Assembly (NCBI GenBank): GCA_047285535.1
Contig: JBJBDC010000001.1
Location: 832,136 to 896,135 of the forward strand
DNA length: 64,000 nucleotides
Direction: 5' to 3'
DNA from: Synechococcus sp.
Lineage (GTDB): Bacteria; Cyanobacteriota; Cyanobacteriia; PCC-6307; Cyanobiaceae
Shown: one piece after another, positions 10,316-46,495 of the stretch
How positions within the stretch are numbered: position 1 is the first letter of the stretch
Layout of the letters: the number at the start of each line of letters is the position of its first letter
Translations under genes and position numbers: made by a program
The notes under the pieces: model-generated
What the model saw: the letters and a program-made list of their open reading frames with translations, nothing else
What the model was told of the DNA's origin: nothing
Databases searched by the model: none

Positions 10316-11974
10316 TTAGAATTTTATAGTAGTTTGAACTAGAGCGCCCAAGACATTAAATTGTCCATCATAACCGCTTCCATTCTTTACAAGAGATTGG
10401 GTGTCCTGACCTTCTGGGCGGGAAAGATAGAAGATGGCAGGTGTAATTGCAATATTATCTGTAACTTGGAAATTATAATACAGCTCTAAAACATAATTGC
10501 CATCGAACGGAGTATCACCACCTTTAAGACTAGTGGCAAAAGTAGGCTGGCCAACAGCGAAACCTAAATCATTACCTTTGAGGAATACGTCATTCCACTT
10601 TAACCCCGCCATCCAGCTTTGTGTTTGGATAGGTGTTCCATCCTGCTTATTTGCAGTACTAACAGTATTCAAACCCCAGCCCAAAGAAATTGATGGAATA
10701 AATCCAGCTTCTTCTGGCTGCCAATAAGCGTTCAAGGCATAACTGTTAGTGGAGCTGCCGCTACGTTTTTTATCTCCATTAGAATCTTCGTAGAAACATT
10801 CATTGTTCCATTTATCATTCCTTGCAAATGACGTGCCACGACGAAAACCGTTACCACTATCACACTGGCCATATCGATATCCAAAAGCAACACCCCAACG
10901 AGGACCTGCATAACCCAACTGAGCGAGTAGACTAGCCTCCGAATTCGCAGTCATAAAACCCCCTGCTCCAGGATCAGAAACATTGCCATCTTTATCGTCC
11001 GCAACATAATTGACCGATACACTGAATGCATTGGCACCCTTATCAACCTTTTGCCTCCAGTAACCACCAATCAGTTGACCCGTTTCTTTGTTGTAAACAC
11101 CACTGGTACCCATTAAGGCAGTCCAGTCAAGAATTTTGGCACCTCCTTTGTTGTACATAGAAGGCCATAGTGCCAAAGACTCAGTATTTCGAGCCACAGC
11201 ACCAGCAATTAGGGTGATTTGATCACCGACAGGAAACTTGTAGTAAAGACGATCAACAATTATGTTGTTGCTGAGATTGCTGTCGACAGCGCCAGAATCT
11301 GTAGCAACATCCAGAGCTGCAAGATTAACGCCAGATCCAGCAAAAGCATTTTTACCTCTCCTGAAGTTTCCAGCCCTAAGACGAGTTAAAAGCTTATCCT
11401 TTCCAGTAAAACTCGTATTGAGGATCAAACGCTGGTCATAGTTAAAAGTTGTCGCTCCGAATGCACCGTTGTAATCATCTGAACCATCACCAGAAGCGTT
11501 GGTGGCACCGATCACGAAGGTACTTTTACCCTTCAACGTGGTGGTGGTGGAGAACTGAGTGGCTTCCAGTTCGCCAACACGGGCTTCCAGTCCGTCCACA
11601 CGGCCCTTGAGGATGGCGAGTTCCTTCTCGAACTCTTTCATCAGGCGCTTGAGTTCGTCGGTCACTTCGGTGACGCGATCGAGACAGGCGTTCAACAGAG
11701 CCGCCGCTTCAAAGCGGGTCATCGCCCTGTTGCCGCGGTAGGTGCCGTTGGGGTATCCAGCGACGCAGCCGTAACGCTCGATCAGGTTGCTCAGGGCCTG
11801 ATAGGCCCAATCCGTGGGGTACACATCAGAAAACTGAGTGATGCTGGTGACCTGTTCACCAGTGGCGGTGTAGTCAGAGACACCGTTGATGTTGAGCTCA
11901 GTGGCGTTCGCAGCCATAGGGGCCAGAAGGCCCAGTGCTGCTGGAGCCACCAGCAGTTTGCGGAACAGTTTCAT
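10316..11974 (-). CDS. som: Som/OprB-type outer-membrane porin with SLH domain (probably the P-island porin)
   Basis: Signal peptide, SLH FSDVYPTDWAYQAL...TRFEAAA, coiled coil, TQFSTTT, terminal Phe. Confidence 0.93.
   Translation of the reverse strand: MKLFRKLLVAPAALGLLAPMAANATELNINGVSDYTATGEQVTSITQFSDVYPTDWAYQALSNLIERYGCVAGYPNGTYRGNRAMTRFEAAALLNACLDRVTEVTDELKRLMKEFEKELAILKGRVDGLEARVGELEATQFSTTTTLKGKSTFVIGATNASGDGSDDYNGAFGATTFNYDQRLILNTSFTGKDKLLTRLRAGNFRRGKNAFAGSGVNLAALDVATDSGAVDSNLSNNIIVDRLYYKFPVGDQITLIAGAVARNTESLALWPSMYNKGGAKILDWTALMGTSGVYNKETGQLIGGYWRQKVDKGANAFSVSVNYVADDKDGNVSDPGAGGFMTANSEASLLAQLGYAGPRWGVAFGYRYGQCDSGNGFRRGTSFARNDKWNNECFYEDSNGDKKRSGSSTNSYALNAYWQPEEAGFIPSISLGWGLNTVSTANKQDGTPIQTQSWMAGLKWNDVFLKGNDLGFAVGQPTFATSLKGGDTPFDGNYVLELYYNFQVTDNIAITPAIFYLSRPEGQDTQSLVKNGSGYDGQFNVLGALVQTTIKF
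11540..11974 (-). repeat. 435-bp 5' porin cassette, inverted copy of 38249-38683
   Basis: Manual alignment gave about 13 mismatches in 435 bp. Confidence 0.92.
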
Positions 11975-11980
11975 TTTCGG

Positions 11981-11989
11981 TCCTCACAC
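11981..11989 (-). promoter_or_regulatory. Yfr1-type sRNA target site GTGTGAGGA at porin RBS
   Basis: Minus strand ggtgtgaggaccgaaaATG, complementary to UCCUCACAC. Confidence 0.7.
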
Positions 11990-29030: not shown

Positions 29031-30494
29031 ATGGCGATTGCCGAGTGGCGTCAGCAACTAGAAAATGGTGATGTATCTGCCAGGGAGCTGACCGATCATC
29101 ATTTGGCTCGAATTGAGGCCATTGATCCAAGCGTTCATGCCTTTCTAGAGGTCACAGCTGATCGAGCTCGCGCCGATGCCGATCGGATTGACGAGGCTCG
29201 AGCAGCAGGCGAATCGCTACCTCCACTTGCGGGAGTGCCCATTGCCATCAAGGACAACCTGTGCACGAAGGGAGTTCGGACGACCTGCTCCAGTCGGATG
29301 CTGAAGTCTTTTGTTCCGCCTTATGAATCGACAGTCAGTGATCGACTCTGGCGTTCCGGGGCAGTTCTGATCGGGAAGACCAATCTTGACGAGTTCGCCA
29401 TGGGCGGATCGACTGAAACCTCTGCTTTTGGTCCAACAGCCAATCCCTGGAATACGGACTACGTACCTGGAGGTAGTTCTGGCGGAAGTGCTGCAGCTGT
29501 TGCGGCAGGTGAATGCATGGCTTCTCTCGGGTCTGACACCGGTGGATCGATCCGACAACCAGCTTCCTTTTGTGGTGTTGTTGGCCTGAAGCCCACCTAT
29601 GGCCGCGTGAGCCGCTACGGGCTGGTGGCTTTTGCAAGCTCACTGGACCAAGTAGGTCCTTTTGCCACTTCAGTTTCCGATGCGGCTGAATTGCTACAAG
29701 CAATCGCTGGGGAAGATTCGCGAGATTCAACCTGCCTGAAAGCCCCTGTACCCAATTACCGCAGTGCCATTGGTCGCTCTATCCAAGGGCTCCGGGTCGG
29801 GGTGGTTCGAGAATGCTTTGAGCAGGAAGGATTGGACGCTGAGGTCAAAGCCTCAGTGCTTGGCGCTGCCGATCAGCTGCAGTCACTAGGAGCCGAGCTC
29901 GTGGATGTCAGTTGCCCACGATTTAACGACGGCATTGCCACCTACTACGTCATTGCCCCATCAGAAGCATCAGCCAACTTGGCGCGTTACGACGGAGTGA
30001 AGTACGGCTTCCGTGCCGACGATGCTTCCAGCCTTGCTGCCATGACGGCACGCAGCCGAGCCGAAGGGTTCGGCAGCGAGGTTCAACGTCGAATTTTAAT
30101 TGGCACCTATGCCCTCTCAGCAGGATATGTGGAGGCTTACTACCGCAAAGCTCAGCAGGTTCGAACCTTGATTCGTAAGGACTTCGAGACAGCCTTTGCC
30201 TCCGTCGATGTCTTGTTGACACCGACCGCCCCATCCACTGCATTCGCCTCTGGAACACACGCGGATGACCCCCTAGCGATGTACCTGGCGGATCTACTCA
30301 CCATTCCTGCCAACCTTGCTGGACTACCAGCCATCAATGTTCCTTGCGGTTTCGACAACAAGGGATTGCCGATCGGTCTTCAACTCATTGGCAATGTGCT
30401 TGAGGAATCTCTGCTGCTCCAAGTCGCTCACCAGTACGAGCAGTCTGCAAATGTGATGATGCAGCGCCCGAGGGGGAGTTTTGTTCCAGCCTGA
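29031..30494 (+). CDS. gatA: Asp/Glu-tRNA amidotransferase subunit A
   Basis: [39 protein letters not shown]. Confidence 0.97.
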
Positions 30495-30575
30495 GCTCAC
30501 CAGCTTCAACCCCTGCATCTAGCGTTTTAGGAGATTGACACCGCTGCATCTTGCGGATGCGCTTAGTCTGGTCGC

Positions 30576-33500
30576 ATGGCATTTGTTCCTCTTCATAACC
30601 ACAGCGACTACAGCCTTCTGGACGGAGCCTCGCAACTCCCCCAAATGGTGGAGCGTGCGAAGGAATTAGGGATGCCAGCTCTGGCCCTTACGGATCACGG
30701 CGTGATGTACGGAGCCATTGAACTGCTGAAGTTGTGCAAGGGAGCCGGAATCAAGCCGATTATTGGCAATGAAATGTATGTCATCAATGGATCCATTGAT
30801 GACCCCCAACCCAAAAAAGAGCGCCGATATCACCTTGTAGTACTGGCTAAGAATGCCACTGGCTATCGCAACTTAGTCAAGCTAACCAGCATCAGCCATC
30901 TCCGTGGAATGCGTGGGCGAGGAATTTTTTCACGTGCTTGTATTGACAAACAACTCCTCAAGCAGTTCGGAGAGGGTTTAATCGTGGCCACGGCTTGTCT
31001 TGGTGGTGAAATTCCACAGGCAATCATGCGTAATCGACCTGACGTGGCGAGAGAAATAGCCCTTTGGTATCAGGAAACTTTTGGCGATGACTTTTATCTT
31101 GAAATCCAAGATCACGGATCACCTGAAGATCGGATTGTCAATGTAGAAATTGTAAAAATAGCGAAGGATCTTGGAATTCGCCTGATTGCAACGAACGATG
31201 CTCATTACCTCACACGTCATGATGTCGAAGCTCACGATGCCTTGCTGTGCGTACTGACAGGCAAACTCATCAGCGATGTCAAACGGTTGCGGTACACAGG
31301 CACTGAATATCTCAAGAGTGAGGAGGAGATGAAGCGACTATTTACTGACCACATTGAGCCAGATGTGGTGTCGGAAGCCATTAGCAACACAGTGCAAGTT
31401 GCCGAAAAAATTGAGGACTACGACATTCTCGGTCACTATCAGATGCCTCGTTTTCCTATACCAGAGCAACACACTCCTGTTAGTTATCTACGCGAGGTCA
31501 CTGAACAGGGGCTATGCAAACGACTGGAGATTAAGAGCACTACAGAGATTGATCTCATTTATAAAGAGCGTCTCCAGCATGAATTAAAGATCATGGAGCA
31601 GATGGGATTCCCCACCTATTTCCTTGTGGTGTGGGATTACATCCGTTTTGCACGGGAGCAGGGAATTCCAGTAGGTCCAGGACGAGGTTCTGCTGCAGGC
31701 TCACTTGTGGCCTATGCCCTAGGCATCACCAATATTGATCCTGTCAGCAATGGCCTTCTGTTTGAGCGATTCCTTAATCCAGAACGCAAATCAATGCCTG
31801 ATATTGACACCGATTTCTGTATCGCACGTCGCGGAGAAGTGATCGATTACGTCACTCGTCGCTACGGCGATGACAAGGTGGCTCAGATCATCACATTCAA
31901 CCGCATGACATCCAAAGCGGTACTTAAAGATGTAGCACGAGTGCTCGACATTCCATACGGCGATGCGGATCGACTTGCAAAGTTAATCCCAGTGGTTCGG
32001 GGAAAACCTGCCAAGTTGGCGGCAATGATCAGTGACGAATCTCCCAATCCTGAATTTCGCGAAAAGTATCAAAAAGATCCGACTGTGAAGCGTTGGGTTG
32101 ATATGGCGATGCGGATTGAAGGAACGAACAAAACATTCGGTGTTCACGCGGCAGGTGTTGTGATTGCAGCAGACCCTTTGGATGAACTCGTACCTCTTCA
32201 AAGAAACAACGATGGACAGATCATCACTCAATACTTCATGGAAGATGTGGAGTCCATGGGACTATTGAAGATGGATTTCCTTGGCCTTAAAAACCTCACG
32301 ATGATCGATAAAACTCTGGAACTTGTAGCGAGCAGCATTGGAGAACGCATTGATCCAGACAAACTTCCATCGGAGGATCCGGAAACATTTGCTCTCTTAG
32401 CTCGTGGTGATCTTGAAGGAATTTTTCAGCTTGAGTCCACTGGAATGAGGCAAATCGTTCGCGACCTCAAGCCATCATCTCTTGAAGATATTTCTTCAAT
32501 TTTGGCGCTCTATCGCCCCGGTCCACTCGATGCAGGATTGATCCCTAAATTTATCAATCGAAAACATGGTCGTGAAGTCATTGATTTTGCTCATCATTCG
32601 ATTGAACCAATCCTTCAAGAGACCTATGGAATCATGGTTTATCAGGAGCAAATCATGAAAATTGCTCAAGACATGGCTGGATATTCGCTTGGCGAAGCGG
32701 ATTTACTCAGGCGCGCGATGGGCAAGAAGAAAGTGTCAGAAATGCAGAAACATCGAGGCATTTTTGTCGAGGGTGCTGCTGAGCGAGGAGTCGAAAAAAA
32801 GGTTGCTGATGAATTATTCGACCAAATGGTTTTATTTGCTGAATATTGCTTCAACAAGAGTCATTCCACTGCCTATGGAGCTGTTACTTACCAGACTGCA
32901 TATTTAAAAGCGCATTACCCGGTGGCTTACATGGCTGCCTTGCTAACGGTTAACGCTGGAGCCAGTGACAAGGTGCAGCGCTATATCTCAAATTGCAATG
33001 CCATGGGCATTGAAGTGATGCCTCCGGATATCAATGCATCCGGAATTGATTTCACTCCCAAAGGTGAGCGCATCCTGTTTGGCTTATCTGCTGTTCGCAA
33101 CCTCGGCGACGGAGCCATTCGCGCAGTCATTGCGTCCAGGCAAGAGGAAGGATGTTTCGAGTCCTTAGCGGATCTCTGCGATCGACTTCCTTCTTCAGTG
33201 TTGAATCGAAGAAGCATAGAATCACTGATCCATTGCGGAGCAATGGATGCACTCGAGCCGAAAGCCAATCGAGCTCAATTGATGGCTGATTTGGATCTTC
33301 TTCTGGATTGGGCCACATCACGAGCCAAAGATCGAGCCAGTGGTCAGGGAAATTTGTTTGATCTGATGGCAGCACCGAGTGATGGTGCTGATTCCGCGGT
33401 CAAGGATCTCAGCCTGGCGCCCAAAGCCCCTGCAGTTAAGGATTACCACCCCACGGAAAAGCTCAGATTGGAAAAGGATCTCGTGGGTTTCTATCTTTCC

Positions 33501-34097
33501 GACCATCCGTTAAAACAGCTCACTCCGCCCGCGAAGCTATTGGCTCCAATCGGCCTCGGAAGTCTTGAAGAACAAGCCGATAAATCCAAGGTCAGCGCTA
33601 TCGCCATGATCAGTGAGATGCGTCAGGTCACCACTCGAAAGGGAGATCGAATGGCAATCCTGACCCTCGAAGATCTCACTGGTTCTTGTGAAGCCGTGGT
33701 CTTTCCCAAAAGCTATGCACGTTTATCGGATCACCTCGTCGCTGAAGCTCGCCTGCTTGTCTGGGCAGCTGTCGATCGCCGTGACGATCGGGTCCAACTG
33801 ATCATTGATGACTGTCGAGCCATCGATGATTTGCGCTTGCTGATGGTGGAACTTGATCCTGAGCAGGCCAGTGATGTAGCTGTACAGCACAAACTGCGTG
33901 AATGTCTTCAGGCTTATCGCCCTGACCAGGAGGAATTAGGTGTGCGAGTGCCAGTCATCGCTGCAGTGCGTCAAGGCACAGCTGTTCGCTATGTGCGACT
34001 TGGTCCTCAGTTCTGCGTGCGTGATGCTTCCGCTGCCGCCGTTCACTTACAAGAACGTTCTTTCAAGGTTCAATGTAGTGAACCTCTTCTCAATTAA
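30576..34097 (+). CDS. dnaE: DNA polymerase III alpha subunit (unsplit, no intein)
   Basis: [29 protein letters not shown], continuous [11 protein letters not shown]. Confidence 0.98.
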
Positions 34098-34134
34098 AGG
34101 GGAGAATTAAACTGAAACTGAAACAAAAGCCAAT

Positions 34135-34551
34135 TCAACTCTGTTGTTGAGTACGAATCGATTCTCTCATTCTCTGGAAATTGATCTTGATATTCTCCAG
34201 CCCAAGGAATGTCCCCGATTCTTGTTCCCAGCTGGCAGATAAAACTCCATAGCTCAGTCCACCCAGCCCCAACAAAAAGAAACCTCCTGAGACAATCAAT
34301 GTGACACCAGGAGGAACATCCAGTATTTGACGAGAAACCAGAAAGTAACTGGCTACAAAGACACCCATTCCGATGATGGAAGGAATCCCGGTGGCTATTG
34401 CTACCCGACGTGCCATGCGATTGGCAACAGCCTTCGGTATGGGTTGGCTACGTACAGATGTTGCTGAATTTTTGCCAGGTTTTGCTTGAGATTTGGATCC
34501 ATCAGCTGATCGTCGCGGCTCAAAAGGCAAGGAGTTGCGTCGGTCAGCCAT
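34135..34551 (-). CDS. PAM68 family protein
   Basis: IPKAVANRMARRV...LSYGVLSASW; downstream of rpsO. Confidence 0.9.
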   Translation of the reverse strand: MADRRNSLPFEPRRSADGSKSQAKPGKNSATSVRSQPIPKAVANRMARRVAIATGIPSIIGMGVFVASYFLVSRQILDVPPGVTLIVSGGFFLLGLGGLSYGVLSASWEQESGTFLGLENIKINFQRMRESIRTQQQS

Positions 34552-34585
34552 GGCTATGGGGGTCTTGAACTCAAATGCAGCTTGC

Positions 34586-34855
34586 TTAGCCGCGAATTCC
34601 AAGCTTAGAAATCAAATCGCTGTAGCGCTGTTCGCTTTTGCCACGAACATAACCAAGCAAACGCTTGCGACGTCCAATCATTTTCAACAGGCCCTGACGA
34701 GACGAATAATCGTGGATGTTCTGTTGAAGATGGCTGCTCAGCTTCGAGATGCGCTCGCTCAGCATGGCGACCTGAACCTCTGCCGATCCTGTATCGGTGG
34801 CATGGGTTTGATGGCTGTTGATGAGTTGCTGCTTTTCAGTGGTATCAAGCGACAT
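34586..34855 (-). CDS. rpsO: 30S ribosomal protein S15
   Basis: [23 protein letters not shown]. Confidence 0.98.
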
Positions 34856-35391
34856 GCGCGGCGTCCGGACCTTTCAGGGCAAAGATCTAATTTACCTCTT
34901 CATGTGCAGAATGAGGAAGACTTTACGTAAGCAAGTCCTATCAATGGATTTGACGGAAAACAAGTCCACAGGTAGCTGTACCAAGTGGCTGTTCCCATAG
35001 GAATAGTGCAGCGATGGGCTCAGCTTCAAAGCTCGCTAGGGCGGACGGAGGTCAAGCCTGCGGCTCCGTGGTACGTCCACAGATGCACCTCAGTGCGCTT
35101 AGACGCAATGACGCGGGCAGCCTTGCTTCGACAAACGGGTGCTACTGCTCAGGATCGTTGTGTGAGACATGGATCTCCGCGATTGCAAAATCCGAGCACT
35201 GACAGTCAGGTCCCAGCATTTCTTCGAGATCAGCGTGGGAGCATCCATCAACCCAATCCAAGACAGCGATCTCAGCAGACAAAATCCCCAAGCTGATGAC
35301 AAAGCTCGCGTTTGCTTCGGTAGATGTGGGGGAACACCTAAAAATCCTGGGATTCAAGGCCCAGGGCGTTCTTTTGTCGTAACGTCAATAC

Positions 35392-35637
35392 ATGAAAAAA
35401 ATCATTCTTATTCTTTTCATTGTATTAGCAGCTGGTGGCTGGTCTGGAGGCACTTATGGATCACGCATAGAAGCCAGGAAGGCAAGCCAAAAATGGCAGA
35501 AAGCTGATCCTAATAATCGAGTTTGCCATCTATCAAGTGACTACCGGGAGAAACAATTCAATTGTTTCCAAAAAGATAGTGATGAACAGAACTATGACGA
35601 TCCAAAATATTTTTATTTTAAATGGGGCAGTCAATAA
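35392..35637 (+). CDS. Small secreted/membrane hypothetical protein
   Basis: MKKIILILFIVLAAGG signal-like N-terminus, AT-rich. Confidence 0.5.
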   Translation: MKKIILILFIVLAAGGWSGGTYGSRIEARKASQKWQKADPNNRVCHLSSDYREKQFNCFQKDSDEQNYDDPKYFYFKWGSQ

Positions 35638-36753
35638 TTTCTTTGCCGTGGATCGCAAGAAGTTCGCGCTGTCTCCATCAATCGCTCTCACTGTTGGGCG
35701 AACTCTTTAGTTCCATAGGAAGAGCCCGAGTCTGGGAGGTGCGTGGAACTCCTAAGGTTTGAACGCTCGGCGCCTAAACGAATTGTACAGATTCCATGGA
35801 TTGACTTCTTCCTTGTGTTGAGTCGTGAGTGTGGGGTTCTTCTGCCAACCATTGTCGGTTAGACCCTTGCATCTGTTGCTCGCGCCAATGTTTTTTTGAA
35901 CCAATGTCGTATTGGGTTGTACGAAATTCGAATACTCTGATTAGCTTCAACAGCTTTGATCGAAAATCGATCAATTTTGGGTTGCGTCATTCCGCCAACC
36001 TGGCGGTTTGTCGTTTGCGCCATTGGGCCAATACTTTTTGGCCCTTTGGCAATACCACCACTGAACAACACAGGGGAGTGGCATATCGAGTTGGCGCCAG
36101 GGGCTCCAAAGCTCGTCCATCAACAGCTGTTGAATCACAGATTATTCCAAACTCTCATCAATAGGGCAGTGATCGCCAATGCGGTCTTACACAGCAACAT
36201 CTTTTGCTGTTGCAACACCGTTGTCCATCCACTCGAACTGGACCGACCACAAGATCCGTTTTTAGCTGCTCAACAGCAGTTGCCATACGTTGAAGGTTCA
36301 GAGCCTTATGAAAGCCAGTTCTTGCCTTCTGATACAGGGTTTGATGAGCTCTGTAGAAATCCATCTGGAGAAACCAATAACCTTCCAAGGACTTTCTTCT
36401 TCTCAGCAGTCGCAATTAGTTGCCCAAGGTCCACCCCTGATGGCGTAGTTCTCAGGACCATCAAGAGTTCGGTTTAATCAACAGTGATCGGCAGTCGCTT
36501 TCCAAGCAATGAGTTGCTTGCAGTCTGGCGATATGGACGGACAGCTCCCAGAATAAGTTTCAGGCATGGCTTCAAAGTCGAACTCACAGCTCTTGAACTG
36601 CTCTGAAGAGATTGAGACGATTCACAAGAAGGAATTGATTGTCATCCCTTCGTTGCCATTTAGCATCAATGCAAATGTGAATTAGAGCTCAAGTTCTATT
36701 TCTCCAGAGTCAGCGAGCAAGTCTTAGTACCACCATTGAATGCACCAGAGGTC

Positions 36754-37413
36754 TTACGCAGAAGGACGATTTAACCAACGCAAACTGGCCCGTAACCAAC
36801 CATCACCGTCATCAGAGGCCGGGACATCACTTCCTGCCGCCACTGCGCGCATGGCTCGACGGATCTCCAGGTCCTCGTAGCCCAGTGCGCTCAAAGTGAG
36901 TTGTAAATCCTCAAGAGGGTCAGGCTGAATCGGTAGCTGTTTGAGGTCACTCCGATCAACAAGAGAAAGCCCGGAAGAATCACTCTCGTGCTGCGCACTC
37001 CAGGCACCAAGACGATCACGCAGTTCCACAGCGAGCCGCTCAGCTGTTCGTTTACCAACCCCCTGAGCCTGGGTCAGTCGGCGCAGATCACCATCGATGA
37101 TGGCTTCAATCAGCTCTTCTGCCCTACAGCACTCCAATAATGCAAGACCCATCTGGGGCCCGACACCATTGACGCTGATCAGAACTCGAAACAGGTCTCG
37201 CTCCCTTCGATCAGGGAAACCAAACAAACTGGATCCATCGTCCCGCTGAACCTGATGAATCCAAACGGTGCAAATCGTACCGGCGGAGAGTGGTTGCAGG
37301 TATCGAGAAGCCAATTGGACTTCGTAACCAACTCCAGCGCAGGCAATAACCAAGCCCTGACGTCCGCCCTGACTCCAGTGTTCGATGCGCTCACCTTGCA
37401 GCCAACCGATCAT
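36754..37413 (-). CDS. ruvA: Holliday junction branch migration protein RuvA
   Basis: MIGWLQG, GVGYEV, LISVNGVGP, GVGKRTAERLAVELR. Confidence 0.96.
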   Translation of the reverse strand: MIGWLQGERIEHWSQGGRQGLVIACAGVGYEVQLASRYLQPLSAGTICTVWIHQVQRDDGSSLFGFPDRRERDLFRVLISVNGVGPQMGLALLECCRAEELIEAIIDGDLRRLTQAQGVGKRTAERLAVELRDRLGAWSAQHESDSSGLSLVDRSDLKQLPIQPDPLEDLQLTLSALGYEDLEIRRAMRAVAAGSDVPASDDGDGWLRASLRWLNRPSA

Positions 37414-37643
37414 GCGAAAGAGTCCAATTGCTGTATCAACATTTGCTCGGGCACTGAGTATGAGAAGGAATCAGACCAATCAACCTGTGAGCCAAGACCA
37501 GCCAGCTCACACAGGATGGTCAGTCTGCGAAATGAGATTCGCTCGATCATCCGTAAGAAAAACCCAGCAAGACGCACATTGATCTGTTCCTTTTTAGAAC
37601 TGAATTTCGCACCACTGTTACCACCAGACTGAACCTGAGCCAT
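37410..37643 (-). CDS. Small hypothetical protein upstream of ruvA
   Basis: ATGA overlap with ruvA start. Confidence 0.55.
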   Translation of the reverse strand: MAQVQSGGNSGAKFSSKKEQINVRLAGFFLRMIERISFRRLTILCELAGLGSQVDWSDSFSYSVPEQMLIQQLDSFA

Positions 37644-37856
37644 AGAAAAGATCTGGTCTTTGGTCAAAAAATCACAAAAGCCTTCTTCTGCTCATCAAAG
37701 GAGCGCAGGAGGGAAACTGACTCTCAAAGTCCCTCATAAGAGCTCCAAAGCAGTCGTGGAGCTCTGAACGTTTGGATCGATCACGAAGATGCTCAGAAAA
37801 GGCAATGGCAGCATGCCCAAAGAAGTGGAGCAACGGTTCAACGAAACGACAGACAT

Positions 37857-37928
37857 AAAAAAGAAGGCCAGGAAGCCTTCTTTAGGGGTGTGAGGAACCA
37901 AATCGTGTGAGGAGATGGCTTCTCCATC
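37857..37928 (-). ncRNA. Candidate Yfr1/Yfr10-like small RNA with two UCCUCACAC seeds
   Basis: Minus strand: 5' hairpin gatgg-agaag-ccatc, TCCTCACAC-gatttggt-TCCTCACAC, then a 9-bp stem with T6 terminator; lies in a non-coding gap. Confidence 0.72.
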
Positions 37929-38234
37929 GATAGGAACACTGAGCCAATGAGTCAACAAGCTGATGCTCTGAGGTTTGTTGCAACTGACAGACCTTACTGT
38001 GTACTGATGTGCATCAGAACCTCTTGAAATCAAAGCGTCAAGCCAAAACCAACACAGGACAAACTCGTCAATCACGGCCCCAATCAACCGGATATGGAGA
38101 CAATGCCTTTGAATCCACAAAAAAGGCGATTACCTGCACATCATCGATTCAAGCTTTTAATCTTGATCCACGCAGAAACCCTGACCTGTTAAGGTAAAGA
38201 AATAATGGAAATAATTATCGCTTTCATTATATTT

Positions 38235-38242
38235 GTGTGAGG
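38235..38242 (+). promoter_or_regulatory. Yfr1-type target site GTGTGAGG at second porin RBS
   Basis: ttGTGTGAGGtttaatTTG. Confidence 0.65.
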
Positions 38243-38248
38243 TTTAAT

Positions 38249-39823
38249 TTGAAACTATTTCGCAAACTGCTGGTGGCTCCAGCGGCTCTGGGTCTTCTGG
38301 CCCCTGTGGCTGCGAACGCCACTGAGCTGAACATCAACGGTGTGTCTGACTACACCGCCACTGGTGAACAGGTCACCAGCATCACTCAGTTTTCTGATGT
38401 GTACCCCACGGATTGGGCCTATCAGGCCCTGAGCAACCTGATCGAACGCTACGGCTGCGTCGCTGGATACCCCAACGGCACCTACCGCGGCAACAGGGCG
38501 ATGACCCGCTTTGAAGCGGCGGCTCTGTTGAACGCCTGTCTCGATCGCGTCACCGAAGTGACCGACGAACTCAAGCGCTTGATGAAAGAGTTCGAGAAGG
38601 AACTCGCCATCCTCAAGGGCCGTGTGGACGGACTGGAAGCCCGTGTTGGTGAACTGGAAGCCACTCAGTTCTCCACCACCACCAAGCTGAAAGGTCTAGC
38701 GACTTTTGCCATTGGCGCTAATAACTTTTATGGAACGAAATCATTAACTCGTGAAAGCAAACGCGAGTTTGGAGGCACCACGTTTAATTACGACCTTCAA
38801 TTAAGCCTTGAAACAAGTTTCACAGGAAAAGATCTACTCCTTACGGTCTTAAGATCTGGAAACTTTGAAACATCTGCATTTGGTGATGGTGGTGGACCAA
38901 CAGGACTATCCACCTTGGAAACCGCATTCCAAGAAGACTCTGGCCCTAATTCCGTAGGGATCGATAAATTATTTTATCAATTCCCAGTTGGCAGCTCATT
39001 CACCTTCACTTTGGGTGGACAAGTAGGCCAAGAGGACATGCTGGCTGTTTGGCCAAGTGCATATCCAAGTGAAACTATTTTAAATGTAACGACTCTCAAT
39101 GGCGCGCCAGCTGCTTACAACAAAAATCTAGGGCCAGGTGCGGGTGTGAGCTGGGCAACAGAAAGCGGATTTAGCATTTCTGCTAACTACGTTGCAGCGA
39201 ATGGAGCCATTGGAAATCCCAGGGAAGGTGGAATTGCGACCAGGAATTCATTGTCCTCTGGAACAGTTCAAATTGCCTATGAATCAGAGAACTGGAACAT
39301 AGCCGCTATTTATTCTGGAATCCAGAATTCAGCACAACTAATAGGAGGGTTTGGTACGACTTTTAATGAAGTGTTCACTGGCTCCAATGCCTTTATGAAT
39401 GCATGGGGCATTGGTGGTTCATGGCAACCTCAAGAGAGTGGCTGGATCCCCTCTATTTCTGCTGGATACGGATACAACACTGTAGAGGCAAACATTGATT
39501 TCGAAGTTTCAGGGAGCCAATCCTGGCTTGTAGGCCTGCAGTGGAATGATGTGTTCCTTAAGGGGAACAATGCTGGTATGGCCGTTGGTCAACCCGTTTT
39601 TGCCACAAGACAGAAAGGAGATTTCACTCCAGGAGACGGCAACTATGTATGGGAATGGTGGTATCAATTCCAGGTTACAGACAATATTAGCGTTACACCT
39701 GCATTGTTTTATCTCTCGAGTCCACTTGGCCAGTTCACTGAGCAGTTCACTGAGCAATTTGCTGGCAATGGCGCAACTTTTTCACAGCTTGGAGGACTCG
39801 TTAAAACTTCATTTAAATTCTAG
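38249..39823 (+). CDS. som: Som/OprB-type outer-membrane porin with SLH domain (TTG start)
   Basis: Same N-terminal SLH cassette as 10316-11974; YVWEWWYQFQVTDNISVTP; terminal Phe. Confidence 0.93.
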   Translation: MKLFRKLLVAPAALGLLAPVAANATELNINGVSDYTATGEQVTSITQFSDVYPTDWAYQALSNLIERYGCVAGYPNGTYRGNRAMTRFEAAALLNACLDRVTEVTDELKRLMKEFEKELAILKGRVDGLEARVGELEATQFSTTTKLKGLATFAIGANNFYGTKSLTRESKREFGGTTFNYDLQLSLETSFTGKDLLLTVLRSGNFETSAFGDGGGPTGLSTLETAFQEDSGPNSVGIDKLFYQFPVGSSFTFTLGGQVGQEDMLAVWPSAYPSETILNVTTLNGAPAAYNKNLGPGAGVSWATESGFSISANYVAANGAIGNPREGGIATRNSLSSGTVQIAYESENWNIAAIYSGIQNSAQLIGGFGTTFNEVFTGSNAFMNAWGIGGSWQPQESGWIPSISAGYGYNTVEANIDFEVSGSQSWLVGLQWNDVFLKGNNAGMAVGQPVFATRQKGDFTPGDGNYVWEWWYQFQVTDNISVTPALFYLSSPLGQFTEQFTEQFAGNGATFSQLGGLVKTSFKF

Positions 39824-39829
39824 ATATGT

Positions 39830-39858
39830 CCAGGCCTGATTTGCATCAGGCCTGGTTT
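39830..39858 (+). terminator. Terminator after porin
   Basis: ccaggcctgat-ttgc-atcaggcctgg-ttt. Confidence 0.8.
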
Positions 39859-40368
39859 CAATAGTCACGAAAAAATCACAACTGAAGCGATGATCACGAA
39901 AAATCTTGCCAAAATCATATTATTGCATGAGCATAGAAGAGCTTGAATGGACAAGCTCTCACTTCAAAACCAGATCTCACTGAACCTGAACTTACATCGC
40001 CGTAAAAAATCGATTCCCGCAAAAGACGACTGCAGTGCAACAACAATCACATAAACAAATTTCCCAGCCAAAGCATTCATCGGCCACCTCCTAGTATGAC
40101 AACAAAACTCCCATTTTATCAAAAAAAATACAACCAGAAACTAACTACACTGATGAGCTGCCATAGGCTAGTCCGTTCAGAACGTATCTGAATCGATTGA
40201 TGAAATTGAGTGCAAAGACACAGCAATACTTGGCATGGACCAAGCCTTCTCGTTAGATTTTACCTACCCTTTATCCTGAATTAGTAATCTCAATCAAATA
40301 ATCCGTACACCATCTATGATCGGAACGACAGAAATCCATGATTTGGTTATCAAAGACCTCATCTGCTC

Positions 40369-40851
40369 ATGTTGACTGACCTGGCTGGCCTTTCATGTCA
40401 AAACTTTTGGATTGTTCCTTCCAAACGCCTCGTTGAGGGGTTGTTGGTTTTAGCGCTGGTGTTGCTCCTAAGCGTGGGATTAACCGGGTGTGGGCCCTTC
40501 GACCAACCGCCACGAAGTGTGCTGTTGAAAGCTCTTGGTCTACAGATTGAATTGACCCAAACGGCGATTGCCCACTCTTTGGAGTTAGAGCCAGCTGGGG
40601 TCCCGGAGGTGAGTCGTGTGCGCATAGAAAATCAAGAGTCCATTCGCTTGGGTGAGCAACGCGGAATCCATCTCAGAGGCCGTTTCGACTGGCGACTGCC
40701 AGCTGACCCCGTACGTGTTGACAGTCCTTTTGAACTTTTCTTGGAGCGTGGTGAACAGGGTGAAAGCTGGCAATTGATTCAACCTGTTGGCTCCAGCGAT
40801 GGAACATCTCAGGATTGGATCACCCATCCGCTACCGATAGATTCGCCCTGA
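40369..40851 (+). CDS. Conserved cyanobacterial lipoprotein (start uncertain)
   Basis: Lipobox LTGC; FELFLERGEQGESWQL. Confidence 0.7.
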   Translation: MLTDLAGLSCQNFWIVPSKRLVEGLLVLALVLLLSVGLTGCGPFDQPPRSVLLKALGLQIELTQTAIAHSLELEPAGVPEVSRVRIENQESIRLGEQRGIHLRGRFDWRLPADPVRVDSPFELFLERGEQGESWQLIQPVGSSDGTSQDWITHPLPIDSP

Positions 40852-40868
40852 ACCCAACGATCAAATCG

Positions 40869-41783
40869 TTAGGCCTCTGGTTGTCTGGAAGACCTCGCGC
40901 TCAAGCTGATCAAGGTCGCTCCTAAAACGCACATGGCACCAAGCACCACGCCGCCGGTAATCGGCTCTGCGAAAAACAACATTCCCCAAAAAGACGCAAA
41001 CACCACCTGGACGTAATTGATCGAGGTGGCTCGGGCTGCGGGAAGAGCAGCAAGGCCTTCGGTTAACCAGATTTGCCCAAGTTGAGTAAATAAACCAACC
41101 CCCAGTAGCCAGATCCATTCCGTTGGTGTTGGCAAGAGAGTGGGTTGGCCCCAAAGCAACAGCAGAGTCGCGGGCACAGAAACCAATGGGAAGTAAAAGA
41201 CAATCACCAGCGGGTGCTCTTTCACTGAGAGTTGACGCACACTTACGTATGAAAGTGCCGTCAGCAAAGCTCCGCTCACGCCAATTAGGGCTGCCATTAC
41301 TGGCAGGTTTTGCGTTGTGCTGTCGACCCACTGTGGCTGCACAACCAAAGTGACACCGACCAGCCCCAAAAGCACTGCAATGCCAAGGCGCCGTCTCACA
41401 TATTCACCCAGCAGCAACCATGCCGCCAAAGCTGTCAGGGTTGGATAGGTGTATTGCAGCAGGGTGGCCGCTGCTAAAGGCAGTCTTGCCAGTGCGTCAA
41501 AAAAACACAACAGAGCTGCAGTTCCAAGCCCCCCACGTACCAATAACAATCTCCGTTGCTCTCCCCACGGTGAGACCCCAAGGCGACGAAGCATTGCCAA
41601 GGTAATGGCAATGCTGATCAAAGAGCGCACCAACACGACCTCCGCCACTGGTAAACGTCCTCCCAGGTATTTCACGCAGACGGTCATCAAACTGAAAGCC
41701 AGTGCACAAGCAATCAGAAGACCGCAGGCGCGCCATTCTTGTGCCGTCTGGCTGCCTTTGATTGCGCGTAGCAGCCCTTGCAT
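40869..41783 (-). CDS. DMT/EamA family transporter
   Basis: About ten TM segments in two EamA repeats. Confidence 0.9.
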   Translation of the reverse strand: MQGLLRAIKGSQTAQEWRACGLLIACALAFSLMTVCVKYLGGRLPVAEVVLVRSLISIAITLAMLRRLGVSPWGEQRRLLLVRGGLGTAALLCFFDALARLPLAAATLLQYTYPTLTALAAWLLLGEYVRRRLGIAVLLGLVGVTLVVQPQWVDSTTQNLPVMAALIGVSGALLTALSYVSVRQLSVKEHPLVIVFYFPLVSVPATLLLLWGQPTLLPTPTEWIWLLGVGLFTQLGQIWLTEGLAALPAARATSINYVQVVFASFWGMLFFAEPITGGVVLGAMCVLGATLISLSARSSRQPEA

Positions 41784-41998
41784 GGTTGATCAACAGCTTT
41801 CAAAAAAGTACAAGCCTGCTTTTACAGGCTTTTCTAAATGTATGACCCAATGATTGAAACACCGGGCTAAAACTCCAGAGTGAAACTTCGTGAGGTGGGG
41901 ACGATCATCAGGGGTTTTTTGGAGTATCTAATCCAGAGATTGAACGCAAAATATGATCGAACGATATTCTGTCCTGCCTTGAAAGCTCGGAACATCCA

Positions 41999-42199
41999 TT
42001 AGATACGGACTTCCAACATCCTTGCTGAATCCATGCGTTCTGCTTCTCGTGAGAGAAATTCGTACCACATGCTCACCAGGACATTGAAAGTGTTGAGCGC
42101 CCGAATTTGCTCATCTGAACCGGGATCAGTGTACTTAAAATCCATAAACATTCGATCAGCAATGACCTGTTGCTCCTTACACCTTGTATCAATCGACAT
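41999..42199 (-). CDS. Small hypothetical protein
   Basis: Clean 66-aa ORF starting 3 bp after the upstream small ORF. Confidence 0.55.
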   Translation of the reverse strand: MSIDTRCKEQQVIADRMFMDFKYTDPGSDEQIRALNTFNVLVSMWYEFLSREAERMDSARMLEVRI

Positions 42200-42202
42200 T
42201 GA

Positions 42203-42337
42203 TCATCCCTGAGTTTGAGATTTCTTGACGACAGGGAGGTCAGAGGGCTGCACAAGAACAAAAATCACAGCAGCAGAAATGACTGCGGTGAAGCCAAGCA
42301 ATCCAATGAACGCAGTTATGCAGTCAACCATTGGCAT
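42203..42337 (-). CDS. 44-aa single-TM protein, not in the ORF track
   Basis: MPMVDCITAFIGLLGFTAVISAAVIFVLVQPSDLP... Confidence 0.5.
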   Translation of the reverse strand: MPMVDCITAFIGLLGFTAVISAAVIFVLVQPSDLPVVKKSQTQG

Positions 42338-44419
42338 ACTTCATGAAGTCACGCAAAGAGCCTAGTCTTTTCGTGAAGAATTGTAAACAGACTGATCGCT
42401 GGATCAGCTTAAGTGCTTACACACTTGATCCGAGCACTCCAAGACTGCGCAGCGGTTCAGGCGGACCTACAAACATCACTGAACTGTCCCAGCTATCAGA
42501 GCACTCTTAAGGAAGCAGGAGCCCCTGGCTTTAGTACGGCCCCGTTGCAACACGATGCTTGTACAAGTAGATCAGACGATTGCATTGATCACGATTGGCA
42601 CATGGCGAAGGGATCTAGCCATAGGAGCAAGCAGGCATCCAAGAATTGCAGGGGCAACCGGATACTCCCAGCCTCAGACGAGAAGGAGAGACGAATGCAG
42701 TCAGGCCTTGAGGGTGAGCTGATCTGACCTGCATTCACTGGATGGCATGCCCTTCTCATGCCTGACAATCCATGGCACATGGCGTCGATCGTTCGTTTAG
42801 TCGCAATGGAGACATCCAACAGCTGTCTCGAAGATTAATTTTCTTTTTTGACAAATACTTGTTATGGGATTTCTGCTTGTCGCTGGTTGCATGGCTTTAG
42901 CAGCCGTCATGTCTGCATCGTTAACCGAGAAAAACTGATCTAGATTCGAAATCATCCAATCACATGTTTTGATGTTTTTGTTCCAAGCAGGAGCAACTCA
43001 TCACTGTAGTCCTACAATTTTTTGAATCACTACCGATCACACACGGCGTATCAGCTTCAAAGAATTCTGTTGATTAAAGCTCCATCTAATTAACCACAAT
43101 GCTTAGCATCCAAAAATTTTGGAAGCCACATTATTTTTCATTATCCAATCAAAGCTGGGACCTAAAAATTTCTCTCGTACTTCTTCTTCCTGCCATAGGA
43201 ACCAGGAGTGTAGAAACCCATGAAAACCAGCATTTTTGTAATATCGCTCCTCCCGGCAAAGAGATTGCCCCTCATTGGATTGATTTGTCATTATCAGACA
43301 AGAGAAGCCGACACAGGCTTTTAATTTACTCAATCGCTTGACAATTCAGGCACGACGGATTCACCCTTATCTGAAGCATATTTTATATCTTGCAAGGGAT
43401 GCGAAATCTCCTTATTGACATACAACTCTTTGATCTCACTTAACTCAATAAGCAACCGTTCAGCACGGCTATTTTGATCACTAATCGAGTGATGATCCAA
43501 TAAATGGACTCAAAATTGGGTAAGGCACCCAACCAAGACCCAGGGTTCCAGCAACCAGCAATTGTCCTGACGGCCACGACATCGCACAAAGCCTTGGCGT
43601 TTAGCCTAGGCATCCCAAAAAGACCAATGGAATCACCTGAACGCAATGTACCGTTTTCGTAGACATTCCTCCTCGCACCGTCCAAAATGACGCGTGCCAA
43701 ACCATCGCCTGCCATAAGCATCCCGAACAATTGCTGATCAATAGAGCAGAGGGTGACTTGTATATCTTCAATCTTTTAGCCAAATCTTCTTAATCGCTAA
43801 TGCATTGGATGATGCTTATGAAACAGCAGGCATCCATTTTGCAGCAAATTAACATCACCTGCGTTTGCGATGAGACCGATTCGCAACAATGCAGCTTTGG
43901 CTTGAATAGCAGGGGAGTATCGAGAGCATTGCACGCAGAATAGAGACACCTAGCTTTCGTTACTGCAGTCGATCGTGACTACCTGATGGATATCATTGAC
44001 AGCAGATCTTCCTCAGCAGCCCACATCCATGGACCTGAGCAGCCGTTTTCTCTAGCGGAATGGGCAAGGCAGGCTTGAGTCGCACATCAGACTAGATATG
44101 GCAGAAACGCATTGCAAACTCAGTCGCGAAAAAGAAGAACCTGTTGCCCCACGAGATGGACAGCTGTTCTTTGTATCTGGAGCCCATCGGTGAAGTTTCC
44201 AGCATCGATGTTCATCAGCCCCAGCGAGGAGTTGTCCTTCAGCACTGGTGTTGAGGACTTGTCTTAAGTCACTCCTTCAGATGTTGCAGAAGTTTTCTCC
44301 CTATCGAGTGGTTGAGTACGCCCGCATGATTGAAGAGCCGGATTGGCCCTCGATCACCGATGTCCCATCGTGGTGAACAACCACGATGGGCTCAGGTCTC
44401 GCAGAATGGTCCCATGGCG

Positions 44420-46495
44420 ATGCCCCGTCTTCATCCCCGCACCATCGACGCCGTCAAGGAGCGAGCCGACATCGTCGATGTGATCGGTGAGCACGTGGTG
44501 CTCAAAAAGAAAGGTCGAGAGTTCGTTGGCGTTTGCCCGTTTCATGACGACAGCAAGCCCTCGATGACGGTGTCTCCGCAGAAGCAGTTTTATTACTGCT
44601 TCTCTTGCGGAGCAGGAGGAAACTCCATCAAGTTTTTGATGGAGTTTCAACGCCAGAGCTTCAGCGATGTTGTACTGGATTTAGCGCGTCGATACCAACT
44701 CCCTGTAGAGACGGTTGATGGACCGCAACAGGAGCGACTTCGTCAACAACTGTCAAGGCGTGATCAGTTGCATCGTGCTTTGGCTCTTGCCTCAGGTTGG
44801 TTTCGCAGTCAGCTGAAGAGTTCTTCCGGCGCTGACGCCCTGACTTATCTTCGCGATCAGCGTGGCTTGAGCGAAGCCACGATGGAGTCCTTTCAGCTCG
44901 GCTACGCCCCCGATCAATGGGACGGATTGATCAAGCATCTTCAACACGTTGAGGGCCTATCGCCCGACCTACTCGAATCTGCGGGCCTGGTTGTTCCCAG
45001 GAAGGGGGGAAACGGATTTTATGATCGCTTTCGTGGTCGAGTCATGGTTCCGATCCGCGATCGACAGGGCCGGGTCATTGGATTTGGAGGAAGAAGTCTT
45101 GATGGCAGTGATCCGAAATACCTGAACTCACCAGAAACGGAAGTCTTTGAGAAGGGAAAACATCTATTTGGTCTGGACCAGGCGGCCAATGCGATCCGAA
45201 AAGACGATCGAGCTGTCGTCGTAGAGGGCTATTTCGATGTCATTGCACTGCATGCGGCTGGCATCACAAATGCGGTCGCCTCTCTTGGCACGGCTCTCAG
45301 CGGACAGCAGATCACCCAGCTTTGCCGGTGCAGTGATGGCAAGCGGATCGTTCTCAATTTTGATGCTGACCGAGCAGGAATCAGAGCTGCCAACAGGGCA
45401 ATCGGGGAGGTAGAGCAGCTTGCTCTTCAAGGACAACTGGAGCTGCGAGTGCTTCACACGCCCTCCGGCAAAGATCCGGATGAGTACTTAAAAGACCACG
45501 GCGCCGGTGACTATCGCGCTTTGCTCGATCAGGCTCCTCTTTGGCTCGATTGGCAGATCGAGCAAGTCCTCGAAGACCGTGATTTAAGTAAGGCTGATCA
45601 GTTTCAACAGGCCGTCAGTGGTTTGGTGGAGCTGTTGGGCAAGCTCCCTCAGTCGGCCATTCGGACTCATTACCTGCAGCAAGTCGCGGAGAGATTGAGT
45701 GGAGGCCAAGGCCGTTTGGCGTTGCAGTTGGAGCAAGATCTGCGCCAGCAGGTTCAGGGGCAGCGCTGGCATGGACGTTCCGCTCGGCATGAAAAGGCTG
45801 GAGAAATCAGCCAGCGAGAGCGCTGCGAAGCTGAGATCCTTCGCATTTACTTGCATTGTCCGATTCATCGCGCCCGGGTGCGCCTCGAATTACGGCAACG
45901 GGAATTGGAGGATTTCGCCCTGCAGCATCACCGTCTGCTGTGGTCCACGATCACAGATCTTGAGGAGGGCAACATCGGATCAGAACGGCTAGAGGCGATC
46001 AGCAGGGGCAAGGACCCTGGTCAAGAATTGGCCGATCTTGATCTTCCACGATTGCTCACCGATCAGTTGCTGCTGGAAAACAGTGACTTAGTAACCCGGC
46101 TAACACCGCTGCTAGAACCCGCTGAACTTCAGCGCCTGGCCCTGGCCCGTCCAATGGAGGTCTTACGTGGCACCGCTGCAATTCTGGAACGTCAGAAGAG
46201 TCATAAGCGCTGCCGTCATTTGCTTGAGGCCTGGGGTGGACAAAGGCTCGAGACCCTGGAGCGCTGTATCGCCTCGCTGATTGCCGATGAACAGGAGCAG
46301 GCGGGCGCGGGAGAAAAGGTGGATATGGAAGGCCGTATTCAAACGATGTTCGAACAGCTGAATGCAGATGCTCTTCGATTGCAAGAGCTCTATTACTCCG
46401 AAAGGAAGCACATTCAGCATCTTGATCAACAGCGCTGCGCTGGTTATGAGGTTGCTGTTGCTTCCCCCCCCGAATCCACGCCTCCAGCAGCTTGA
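44420..46495 (+). CDS. dnaG: DNA primase
   Basis: CPFHDD...CFSC zinc finger, DRFRGR, KYLNSPET, VVEGYFDVI, GKDPDE. Confidence 0.97.
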   Translation: MPRLHPRTIDAVKERADIVDVIGEHVVLKKKGREFVGVCPFHDDSKPSMTVSPQKQFYYCFSCGAGGNSIKFLMEFQRQSFSDVVLDLARRYQLPVETVDGPQQERLRQQLSRRDQLHRALALASGWFRSQLKSSSGADALTYLRDQRGLSEATMESFQLGYAPDQWDGLIKHLQHVEGLSPDLLESAGLVVPRKGGNGFYDRFRGRVMVPIRDRQGRVIGFGGRSLDGSDPKYLNSPETEVFEKGKHLFGLDQAANAIRKDDRAVVVEGYFDVIALHAAGITNAVASLGTALSGQQITQLCRCSDGKRIVLNFDADRAGIRAANRAIGEVEQLALQGQLELRVLHTPSGKDPDEYLKDHGAGDYRALLDQAPLWLDWQIEQVLEDRDLSKADQFQQAVSGLVELLGKLPQSAIRTHYLQQVAERLSGGQGRLALQLEQDLRQQVQGQRWHGRSARHEKAGEISQRERCEAEILRIYLHCPIHRARVRLELRQRELEDFALQHHRLLWSTITDLEEGNIGSERLEAISRGKDPGQELADLDLPRLLTDQLLLENSDLVTRLTPLLEPAELQRLALARPMEVLRGTAAILERQKSHKRCRHLLEAWGGQRLETLERCIASLIADEQEQAGAGEKVDMEGRIQTMFEQLNADALRLQELYYSERKHIQHLDQQRCAGYEVAVASPPESTPPAA

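Follow-up and report, generated by a model that had tools for sequence, protein, structure and literature searches.

A ruvA-linked member of a family of predicted two-motif small RNAs of the Yfr1/Yfr10 class in Synechococcus

In a 64-kb stretch of Synechococcus DNA (64,000 nucleotides, hereafter the window), the minus strand between positions 37955 and 37857 carries an element that we consider very likely to be a genuine gene for a small regulatory RNA of the known Yfr1/Yfr10 class, in which the Yfr1 motif occurs twice. Our preferred reading, to which we give a probability of roughly 0.6, is that the element is an independently transcribed, terminator-bearing sRNA of ~62-65 nt that acts on porins by analogy with Yfr1. 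On comparative evidence, the sRNA gene and its family are well supported, but the story that had been built on its porin neighbour is not.

The minus strand at 37955-37857 reads TTGACT, an imperfect −10, two exact copies of TCCTCACAC, and a 10-bp terminator followed by a T-run. An earlier note on this DNA had described this layout, including the linker between the motifs and the terminator stem, and the minus-strand sequence confirms it; the two exact motif copies and the 10-bp terminator stem likewise bear out its statement that the motif is carried twice in an RNA that ends in a terminator. The features of the element and its downstream neighbour are as follows.

37950..37955, minus strand: −35-like hexamer TTGACT; GTTGACT is invariant in 7 ruvA-linked orthologues and found at an equal distance in paralogues
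37926..37932, minus strand: putative −10 region TATCGAT, an imperfect hexamer in the ruvA-linked copy of this genome
37857..37920, minus strand: predicted sRNA of ~62-65 nt, with its start placed from the −10 and its end at the T-run; fold z = −4.0; matched by covariance model R1 with 82.6 bits (E 6.7e-18; G000:C1:869991-870056, window 37856-37921), a match that is by construction, as this copy is one of the 10 sequences used to build R1
37916..37919, minus strand: 5′ arm of hairpin 1, GCCA, from the predicted fold and the covariation of helix 1
37905..37913, minus strand: motif 1, UCCUCACAC, an exact TCCTCACAC match placed by the fold inside hairpin 1, whose loop shows CUCACAC
37897..37900, minus strand: 3′ arm of hairpin 1, UGGU, from the predicted fold and covariation
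37888..37896, minus strand: motif 2, UCCUCACAC, unpaired in the stretch from hairpin 1 to the terminator (P(unpaired) = 0.99) and likely the main seed
37857..37883, minus strand: intrinsic terminator with a 10-bp stem, a 4-nt loop and a T-run, from a terminator scan and the covariation of helix 2
36754..37413, minus strand: ruvA, the downstream neighbour, identified by Pfam matches and kept beside the sRNA in relatives

The 8-nt linker between the two TCCTCACAC copies is GATTTGGT, CCCT follows directly 3′ of motif 2 ahead of the terminator, and the terminator stem AAAGAAGGCT/GGCCTTCTTT spans 37883-37860 in 10 pairs and leads into the T-run that ends at 37857. In the window we counted three copies of the 9-mer TCCTCACAC where 0.45 would be expected, a count reached in 1 of 100 shuffles; the one outside the element, on the plus strand at 11981-11989, corresponds to the antisense of a porin leader. 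Folding of the predicted 64-nt RNA yields −17.5 kcal/mol (z = −4.0), and none of 200 shuffles folds as well. We rejected a protein-coding reading, for which a 128-aa ORF at 37734-38120 was the candidate: the ORF has no Pfam match, and conservation is confined to the sRNA segment.

Comparison with related copies supports this architecture. All 28 distinct sequences in our alignment fold alike: motif 1 is enclosed by a 5′ hairpin, motif 2 is single-stranded, and a terminator follows. (One duplicate, L024 of L003, and one sequence identical to another, L017 to L016, were left out of this set, and three pattern matches in other families, L009, L028 and L029, which have no terminator, were dropped before alignment.) The covariance model R1 was built from the ten closest sequences and describes only the two outer helices; it finds all 28 sequences as well as two more tandem copies, with independent members scoring 27-68 bits. 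Across the 30 model-aligned copies, which are kin and whose alignment was fitted to R1, 98% of cells are paired and 11 of 13 pairs have changed on both sides; the covariation score is 0.71, compared with 0.27 ± 0.02 in shuffled alignments (0 of 500 shuffles reach it) and 0.04-0.29 in slid controls. Changes on both sides affect four of the five pairs of helix 1, which forms hairpin 1 (29 distinct sequences), and seven of the eight pairs of helix 2, the terminator, where 99% of cells are paired. The raw sequences show stem 1 in the versions GCCAA/UUGGC, GUUGG/CCAAC, GAUCAAC/GUUGAUC, GGAAGG/CUUUUC and GUCAA/UUGAC. Covariation thus supports an RNA in which a 5′ hairpin containing motif 1 is followed by a single-stranded motif 2 and a terminator.

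This 5′ hairpin is not the one first proposed. An inverted repeat, GATGG-AGAAG-CCATC, does exist in the DNA at 37928-37914 (minus strand), as the earlier note had observed, but its assignment as the 5′ hairpin of the RNA gives way to GCCA/UGGU around motif 1, which shows the compensatory changes, whereas the repeat overlaps the −10 and the discriminator. The repeat probably lies upstream of the transcript start and outside the transcribed region, because its 5′ half overlaps the −10 hexamer and an invariant GGA. All seven orthologues have it unchanged and the other paralogues lack it, so that covariation cannot test it.

The start itself can be placed from several conserved features. GTTGACT, and the final AT of the −10 together with the GGA that follows, are invariant at a fixed distance in 7 of 7 ruvA-linked orthologues (alignment A5), and the distance of 35 nt from the −35 to motif 1 is common to the paralogues. 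The −10 can be read as TATCGA (37932-37927) after a 17-nt spacer or as ATCGAT (37931-37926) after an 18-nt spacer; the TTGACT/TATCGA pair went unflagged in our promoter scan, as its second hexamer has no T at position 6. From the −10, the conserved GTTGACT and AT-GGA, and the constant distance between −35 and motif 1, we infer that the element is transcribed from a start at 37921-37919. A second inverted repeat, TCAGT-N6-ACTGA, lies over the −35 (window 37945-37961, minus strand; columns 18-34 of A5). It is kept in all six ruvA-linked orthologues of the relatives and nearly so in the paralogues, but is degenerate here (TCAGC...ACTCA), and it may be a regulator site that has been lost from the ruvA-linked copy of this genome.

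Seven marine RNA runs contained 5-10% of the words sampled. In four of them coverage was limited to 38240-38600, a conserved stretch of porin coding sequence where the reads stem from related porins of 90-99% identity, and these runs are uninformative in either direction as to transcription of the sRNA. One RNA-library contig (run X4) extends upstream of the start of a related porin (window 38250) and carries GGTGTGAGGACCGAAAA there. If this contig is derived from RNA, the site complementary to the motifs would sit in porin transcripts in the sea, though DNA carry-over is possible.

The two motifs are not equivalent. The probability that the 8 nt of the motif are unpaired was computed as 0.09 for motif 1, 0.99 for motif 2 and 0.98 for the motif of Yfr1. 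Two seeds of equal standing are thus unlikely for this RNA, because motif 1 is mostly structured. We also looked at conservation among 13 copies from 10-kb loci of six relatives, which were found by R1 alone, since the pattern search described below required both motifs. Motif 2 is intact in all 13, and motif 1 in seven; in the rest it has decayed to CUCCUGAC, CCCUGAC or CCAUGAC, with the stem kept. Given its structured state and its decay in 6 of the 13 relatives' copies, a second seed is not required by the family. Motif 2 is therefore the constant seed of the two-motif family, with motif 1 kept in some lineages only. Within the ruvA-linked lineage both motifs are invariant in seven orthologues, and motif 1 is, if anything, more complete in this genome than in the orthologues (CUCCUCACAC versus CUCCUCACAA).

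The element is not alone in its genome. The earlier note had presented it as a separate paralog; it is one of four copies here, in a family present in 25 of 33 genomes of the genus. Listing every TCCTCACAC in the genome revealed four loci of the same layout, which score 82.6-95.6 bits with R1.

446534-446560, plus strand: two-motif locus
811023-811049, minus strand: two-motif locus
870023-870049, minus strand: two-motif locus, ruvA-linked, the element studied here
1638890-1638916, minus strand: two-motif locus, identical to that at 811023-811049

Similarity among the paralogues is ~85-90%. The score of 82.6 bits for the ruvA-linked copy is the lowest among the ten closest (type A) copies. A composite pattern, CTCCTCA-N8-18-TCCTCACAC, which requires both motifs and therefore biases counts of motif conservation, matched four times in this genome, whereas its reversed control matched in none of the sets of 41 and 301 genomes that were scanned. 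The pattern was found in 17 of 24 same-genus genomes in a first draw and, among genomes at least 90% complete, in 25 of 33 genomes of the genus, whereas the 35 other genera of the family gave 3 matching genomes out of 267; judged by the letters matched, these three are unlike the two-motif family. The two-motif family is thus almost confined to this genus. Viral contigs contained 105 two-motif stretches, close to chance by a rough estimate, and none of 80 listed loci matched R1 at E<=0.01, so these were set aside.

Several other loci deserve mention in their own right. An identical pair of sRNA and Yfr2 genes occurs twice in the genome (G000:C1:810991-811202 and 1638858-1639069), which points to a recent segmental duplication. 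On the minus strand at G000:C1:1283327-1283392 lies a candidate sRNA of Yfr1-like build with a single motif (26 bits with R1), ordered as a hairpin GAAGCG...CGCUUC, ACCUCACACCCC and a terminator with a U-run. In four genomes of another genus, g47 (L053-L056), a hairpin, GUCUCACACC and a terminator are conserved and score 32-34 bits with R1; this element is a single-motif relative with a variant seed. Three tandem units 686 bp apart (G000:C1:2029873, 2030559 and 2031245, plus strand) carry TCCTCACAC on the sense strand 9 nt before an ATG.

As both motifs resemble that of Yfr1, the relation to this RNA and to other known classes requires attention. Scanning the 64-kb window with Rfam at gathering thresholds yielded tRNA only and no family at the element, and a search of 30000-46000 at E<=0.1 gave no family matching it. 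The search with the Rfam Yfr1 model (RF01116) that the earlier note had recommended was run permissively on 37600-38300 and gave no match at E<=10. In the whole genome (3.03 Mb, 50.6% G+C), this model has a single match above its gathering threshold of 38 bits, at G000:C1:222262-222318 (62.3 bits), flanked by an IMPDH-family gene and a thioredoxin gene. The canonical Yfr1 therefore sits where the earlier note placed it, near trxA/guaB, and our element is, as that note also held, a separate locus, located between ruvA and a porin gene. The element at 37955-37857 is not Yfr1.

In plan the two RNAs are alike. In context, motif 2 reads UUCCUCACAC, which matches the Yfr1 sequence ACUCCUCACAC in part, at 9 of 11 positions, and lies single-stranded between a 5′ hairpin and a terminator; motif 1 reads UCUCCUCACAC and agrees at 10 of 11 positions of the Yfr1 motif. 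Yfr1, as portions of two papers describe it, is likewise built from a 5′ hairpin, a single-stranded UCCUCACAC(C) and then a terminator (PMC2796815, PMC2190773), and its motif is complementary to the ribosome-binding regions of porin (som) mRNAs and to Yfr2 5′ ends. Unlike Yfr1, the two-motif RNAs are multi-copy and hold a second motif within the 5′ hairpin, the element studied here lies outside the IMPDH/thioredoxin synteny, and Yfr1 scores only 11.0 bits (E 0.52) with R1.

The Yfr10/Yfr12/Yfr18 class offers a second comparison. The sections of PMC2518516 and PMC6778093 that treat these RNAs describe a Yfr1 motif outside the Yfr1 gene, presented in a loop on a stem, in genes beside Yfr2 homologues; in MED4, Yfr10, Yfr12 and Yfr18 adjoin Yfr2, Yfr4 and Yfr5. 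According to the same sections, Yfr10-type RNAs are poorly conserved in sequence and synteny. Our element carries two exact UCCUCACAC copies outside the Yfr1 gene, and motif 1 lies, partly paired, in hairpin 1, whose stem shows compensatory changes. Adjacency to Yfr2 is true of the other three genome copies but not of the ruvA-linked one. A further difference is that the published descriptions, as far as those sections go, give one motif per RNA, a comparison in which MED4 Yfr10 enters by its description only. The published probe for the Yfr10-like RNA of Synechococcus WH8102 had a single exact-match locus, in G260, a genome of another genus, which has a single motif and a different build and scores 10.7 bits (E 0.61) with R1. 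We found no description of the two-motif form in the literature covered, whose scope stopped short of Gierga et al. 2012 and of figures S6/S7 of PMC6778093, and S6/S7 could show one. 

Repeated C-rich motifs aimed at Shine-Dalgarno regions are also a property of RsaE/RoxS, which are multi-seed C-rich sRNAs of other bacteria. There too, the hairpin loop presents one motif and the linker another, and the targeted ribosome-binding sites are G-rich, but the lineage and sequence are unrelated and the likeness is an analogy only.

The genomic neighbourhood separates a conserved association from one that is particular to this genome. We examined six close relatives (G059, G219, G227, G009, G016 and G018), and in all six the ruvA-linked orthologue scores 92-94 bits and precedes ruvA, in the same orientation, by ~110-250 nt. 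None of their 10-kb loci (about 4-5.5 kb to either side of the sRNA) contains a porin homologue; upstream of the sRNA they have further sRNA copies and Yfr2 genes, in whose place the porin stands here. Of the synteny with som and ruvA that had been proposed, the ruvA half therefore holds in 6 of 6 relatives and the som porin half in 0 of 6, and a position beside one of its probable targets, as the earlier note put it, is not a conserved trait of this RNA. The porin adjacency is peculiar to this genome, because the relatives' 10-kb loci have no porin homologue. Three of the four genome copies are divergent partners of Yfr2/Cyano-1 genes, ~80-90 nt apart, and a Cyano-1 match exceeds its threshold at 13 of 20 relatives' loci. 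Near the ruvA-linked copy there is no Yfr2/Cyano-1 match in the 64-kb window, nor within 8 kb at E<=0.1. The gap between sRNA and ruvA is 444 nt here and contains two small ORFs with no Pfam match and no homologue in the relatives' loci. Downstream of ruvA, ~1.85 kb of the window (~34908-36754) have no counterpart in the loci of three relatives; none of six ORFs tested in this segment has a Pfam match, and the segment may be an insertion.

The same-strand synteny with ruvA, here and in all six relatives (where the spacing is ~110-250 nt), could also mean that the element acts in cis, as a promoter and leaky terminator that drive or attenuate ruvA, with the short RNA as a by-product. Such an arrangement, an 'actuaton', has a precedent as a concept in Yfr2c, as set out in part of the report concerned (PMC6596454). 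However, the strong 10-bp stem and its T-run show the covariation of a terminator, loci that lack ruvA have the same RNA design, seven orthologues keep both motifs unchanged, which would be needless for a mere leader, and 444 nt separate the element from ruvA in this genome. We regard this alternative as very unlikely.

A still less probable account is that the copy is a silent or decaying duplicate, whose Yfr2 partner and regulatory site were lost once a rearrangement had brought in the porin. Its R1 score is the lowest among the close copies, TCAGT-N6-ACTGA is degenerate and the −10 imperfect, and the porin replaces the Yfr2 and sRNA copies found upstream in relatives, all of which would fit decay; yet both motifs, both stems, the terminator and the −35 are intact, and motif 1 is if anything more complete than in the orthologues.

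The reading we prefer, an sRNA acting on porins, draws on complementarity to the leaders of porin genes. Two such genes lie in the window.

38249..39823, plus strand: neighbour porin with SLH and OprB domains (Pfam); its start is most likely TTG 38249 (MKLFRKLL...), with an N-terminus as in 7 paralogues
38235..38242, plus strand: GTGTGAGG, a site of complementarity to the motifs 6 nt ahead of the porin TTG; whether it belongs to the mRNA hinges on the transcript start
11974..11989, minus strand: second window porin with ATG at 11974 and leader GGUGUGAGGA 7 nt upstream, from the genome leader scan

A mechanical ORF call begins the neighbour porin at GTG 38237, within GTGTGAGG, but the seven paralogues favour TTG 38249. 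A promoter-like match at 38206-38233 would begin the mRNA of this porin within the complementary site. Searching the genome for long ORFs whose start codon is preceded by GTGTGAGG, we obtained twelve, eight of which are porin genes with the N-terminus MKLF(R/H)(K/Q)LL; the other four look spurious. All eight porin genes carry GUGUGAGG 6-7 nt before the start codon. Their leaders are of two types, GUGUGAGGUUUAAUUUG and GGUGUGAGGACCGAAAAUG: six porins, including the window porin at 11974, have GGUGUGAGGACCGAAA(A)AUG, and two, including the neighbour at TTG 38249, have UUGUGUGAGGUUUAAUUUG. In 32 of 34 genomes of the genus, MKL-type starts have the site ahead of them, with 0 in the controls, a match made by start type rather than by porin identity.

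Whole-molecule duplex folding gave unrealistic full-length duplexes, and we therefore counted contiguous helices. With motif 2, the six ATG-start leaders form helices of 10 bp (−17.5 kcal/mol) and the two TTG-start leaders helices of 8 bp; the GGUGUGAGGA leader is a perfect 10-bp match to both motif 2 and Yfr1. Motif 1 of the ruvA-linked copy, alone among the paralogues, forms 10 bp, including one G-U, with UUGUGUGAGG of the two TTG-start leaders. Furthermore, the 5′ ends of the three distinct Yfr2 copies of this genome offer both motifs 8-12 bp of pairing. The complementarity to porin leaders and Yfr2 5′ ends that the original proposal foresaw is thus borne out, with contiguous helices of 8-10 bp and 8-12 bp, respectively. 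Canonical Yfr1 forms the same 8-10-bp helices with all porin leaders, and because of this the helices point to no target specific to the ruvA-linked RNA.

Pairing with Yfr2 raises an alternative that is compatible with our preferred reading, namely that the RNA is chiefly a partner or sponge of Yfr2 and not a porin regulator. Its two CUCCUCAC-type sites would bind, or be neutralised by, one or two Yfr2 5′ ends, and would thereby tune how much Yfr2 and Yfr1 is free. Besides the helices of 8-12 bp that both motifs form with three distinct Yfr2 5′ ends, most family members adjoin Yfr2 genes, and an interaction of Yfr2 with Yfr1 and Yfr10 was shown in Prochlorococcus MED4, as one section of PMC6778093 reports. 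On the other hand, the ruvA-linked copy has no Yfr2 gene in the 64-kb window or within 8 kb (E<=0.1), and a U, rather than C, before motif 2 weakens its pairing with Yfr2 (−10.9 versus −12.5 kcal/mol). For this copy we consider a role chiefly as a Yfr2 partner unlikely.

Regulation of porins by an sRNA with this motif has been studied in Prochlorococcus MED4. There, by the account in part of PMC2796815, two som porins are repressed ~3-fold when Yfr1 pairs at their ribosome-binding sites, and a UCCU mutation of Yfr1, for example to AAAA, abolishes the repression; the study of Yfr1 used a two-plasmid GFP assay in E. coli. Yfr2, in turn, relieves the repression of porins by Yfr1 and binds Yfr10 in the same organism (PMC6778093, in part). 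Working from these precedents, we infer that the ruvA-linked RNA regulates its targets in a similar manner. Its 5′ hairpin, GCCA/UGGU, would hold the first UCCUCACAC largely in the loop, with the second copy single-stranded and the terminator ending the RNA. Motif 2 would pair with GUGUGAGG(A) over the ribosome-binding region, 6-7 nt upstream of the eight som-type porin starts, and thereby, by analogy with Yfr1, lower porin translation. The 5′ GUGAGGAG of Yfr2 RNAs could also bind motif 2, and probably the loop copy too, and would thereby titrate the sRNA. The element is the ruvA-linked member of a four-copy family, and the adjacent porin is a genome-specific neighbour.

A more elaborate scenario, which we offer as speculation and judge unlikely, is that the genus evolved a two-site Yfr1/Yfr10 regulator with a linear and a loop seed on one 65-nt RNA. 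Such an RNA might hold Yfr2 and a porin mRNA, or two mRNAs, at once, and act as a multi-copy, higher-order buffering layer in the Yfr1-Yfr2-porin circuit. The ruvA-linked copy would have been rewired within this circuit: it would have lost its Yfr2 partner and the promoter-proximal inverted repeat, and its loop seed would have been completed to UCCUCACAC(GA), the best match to the two TTG-start leaders, one of which is now next door.

Few sRNA networks are conserved across cyanobacteria, and Yfr1, Yfr2 and Yfr10-type RNAs make up one of them; in marine picocyanobacteria it governs both central metabolism and outer-membrane porins. We count about ten seed copies in the six sRNA genes of this genome, beside four Yfr2 genes and eight porin leaders. 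The genus-wide two-seed variant is a test case for whether loop-presented and linear seeds differ in their job, and also for the balance between sRNA and target copy numbers. It adds unannotated sRNA genes to many marine Synechococcus-type genomes, together with a covariance model to find them.
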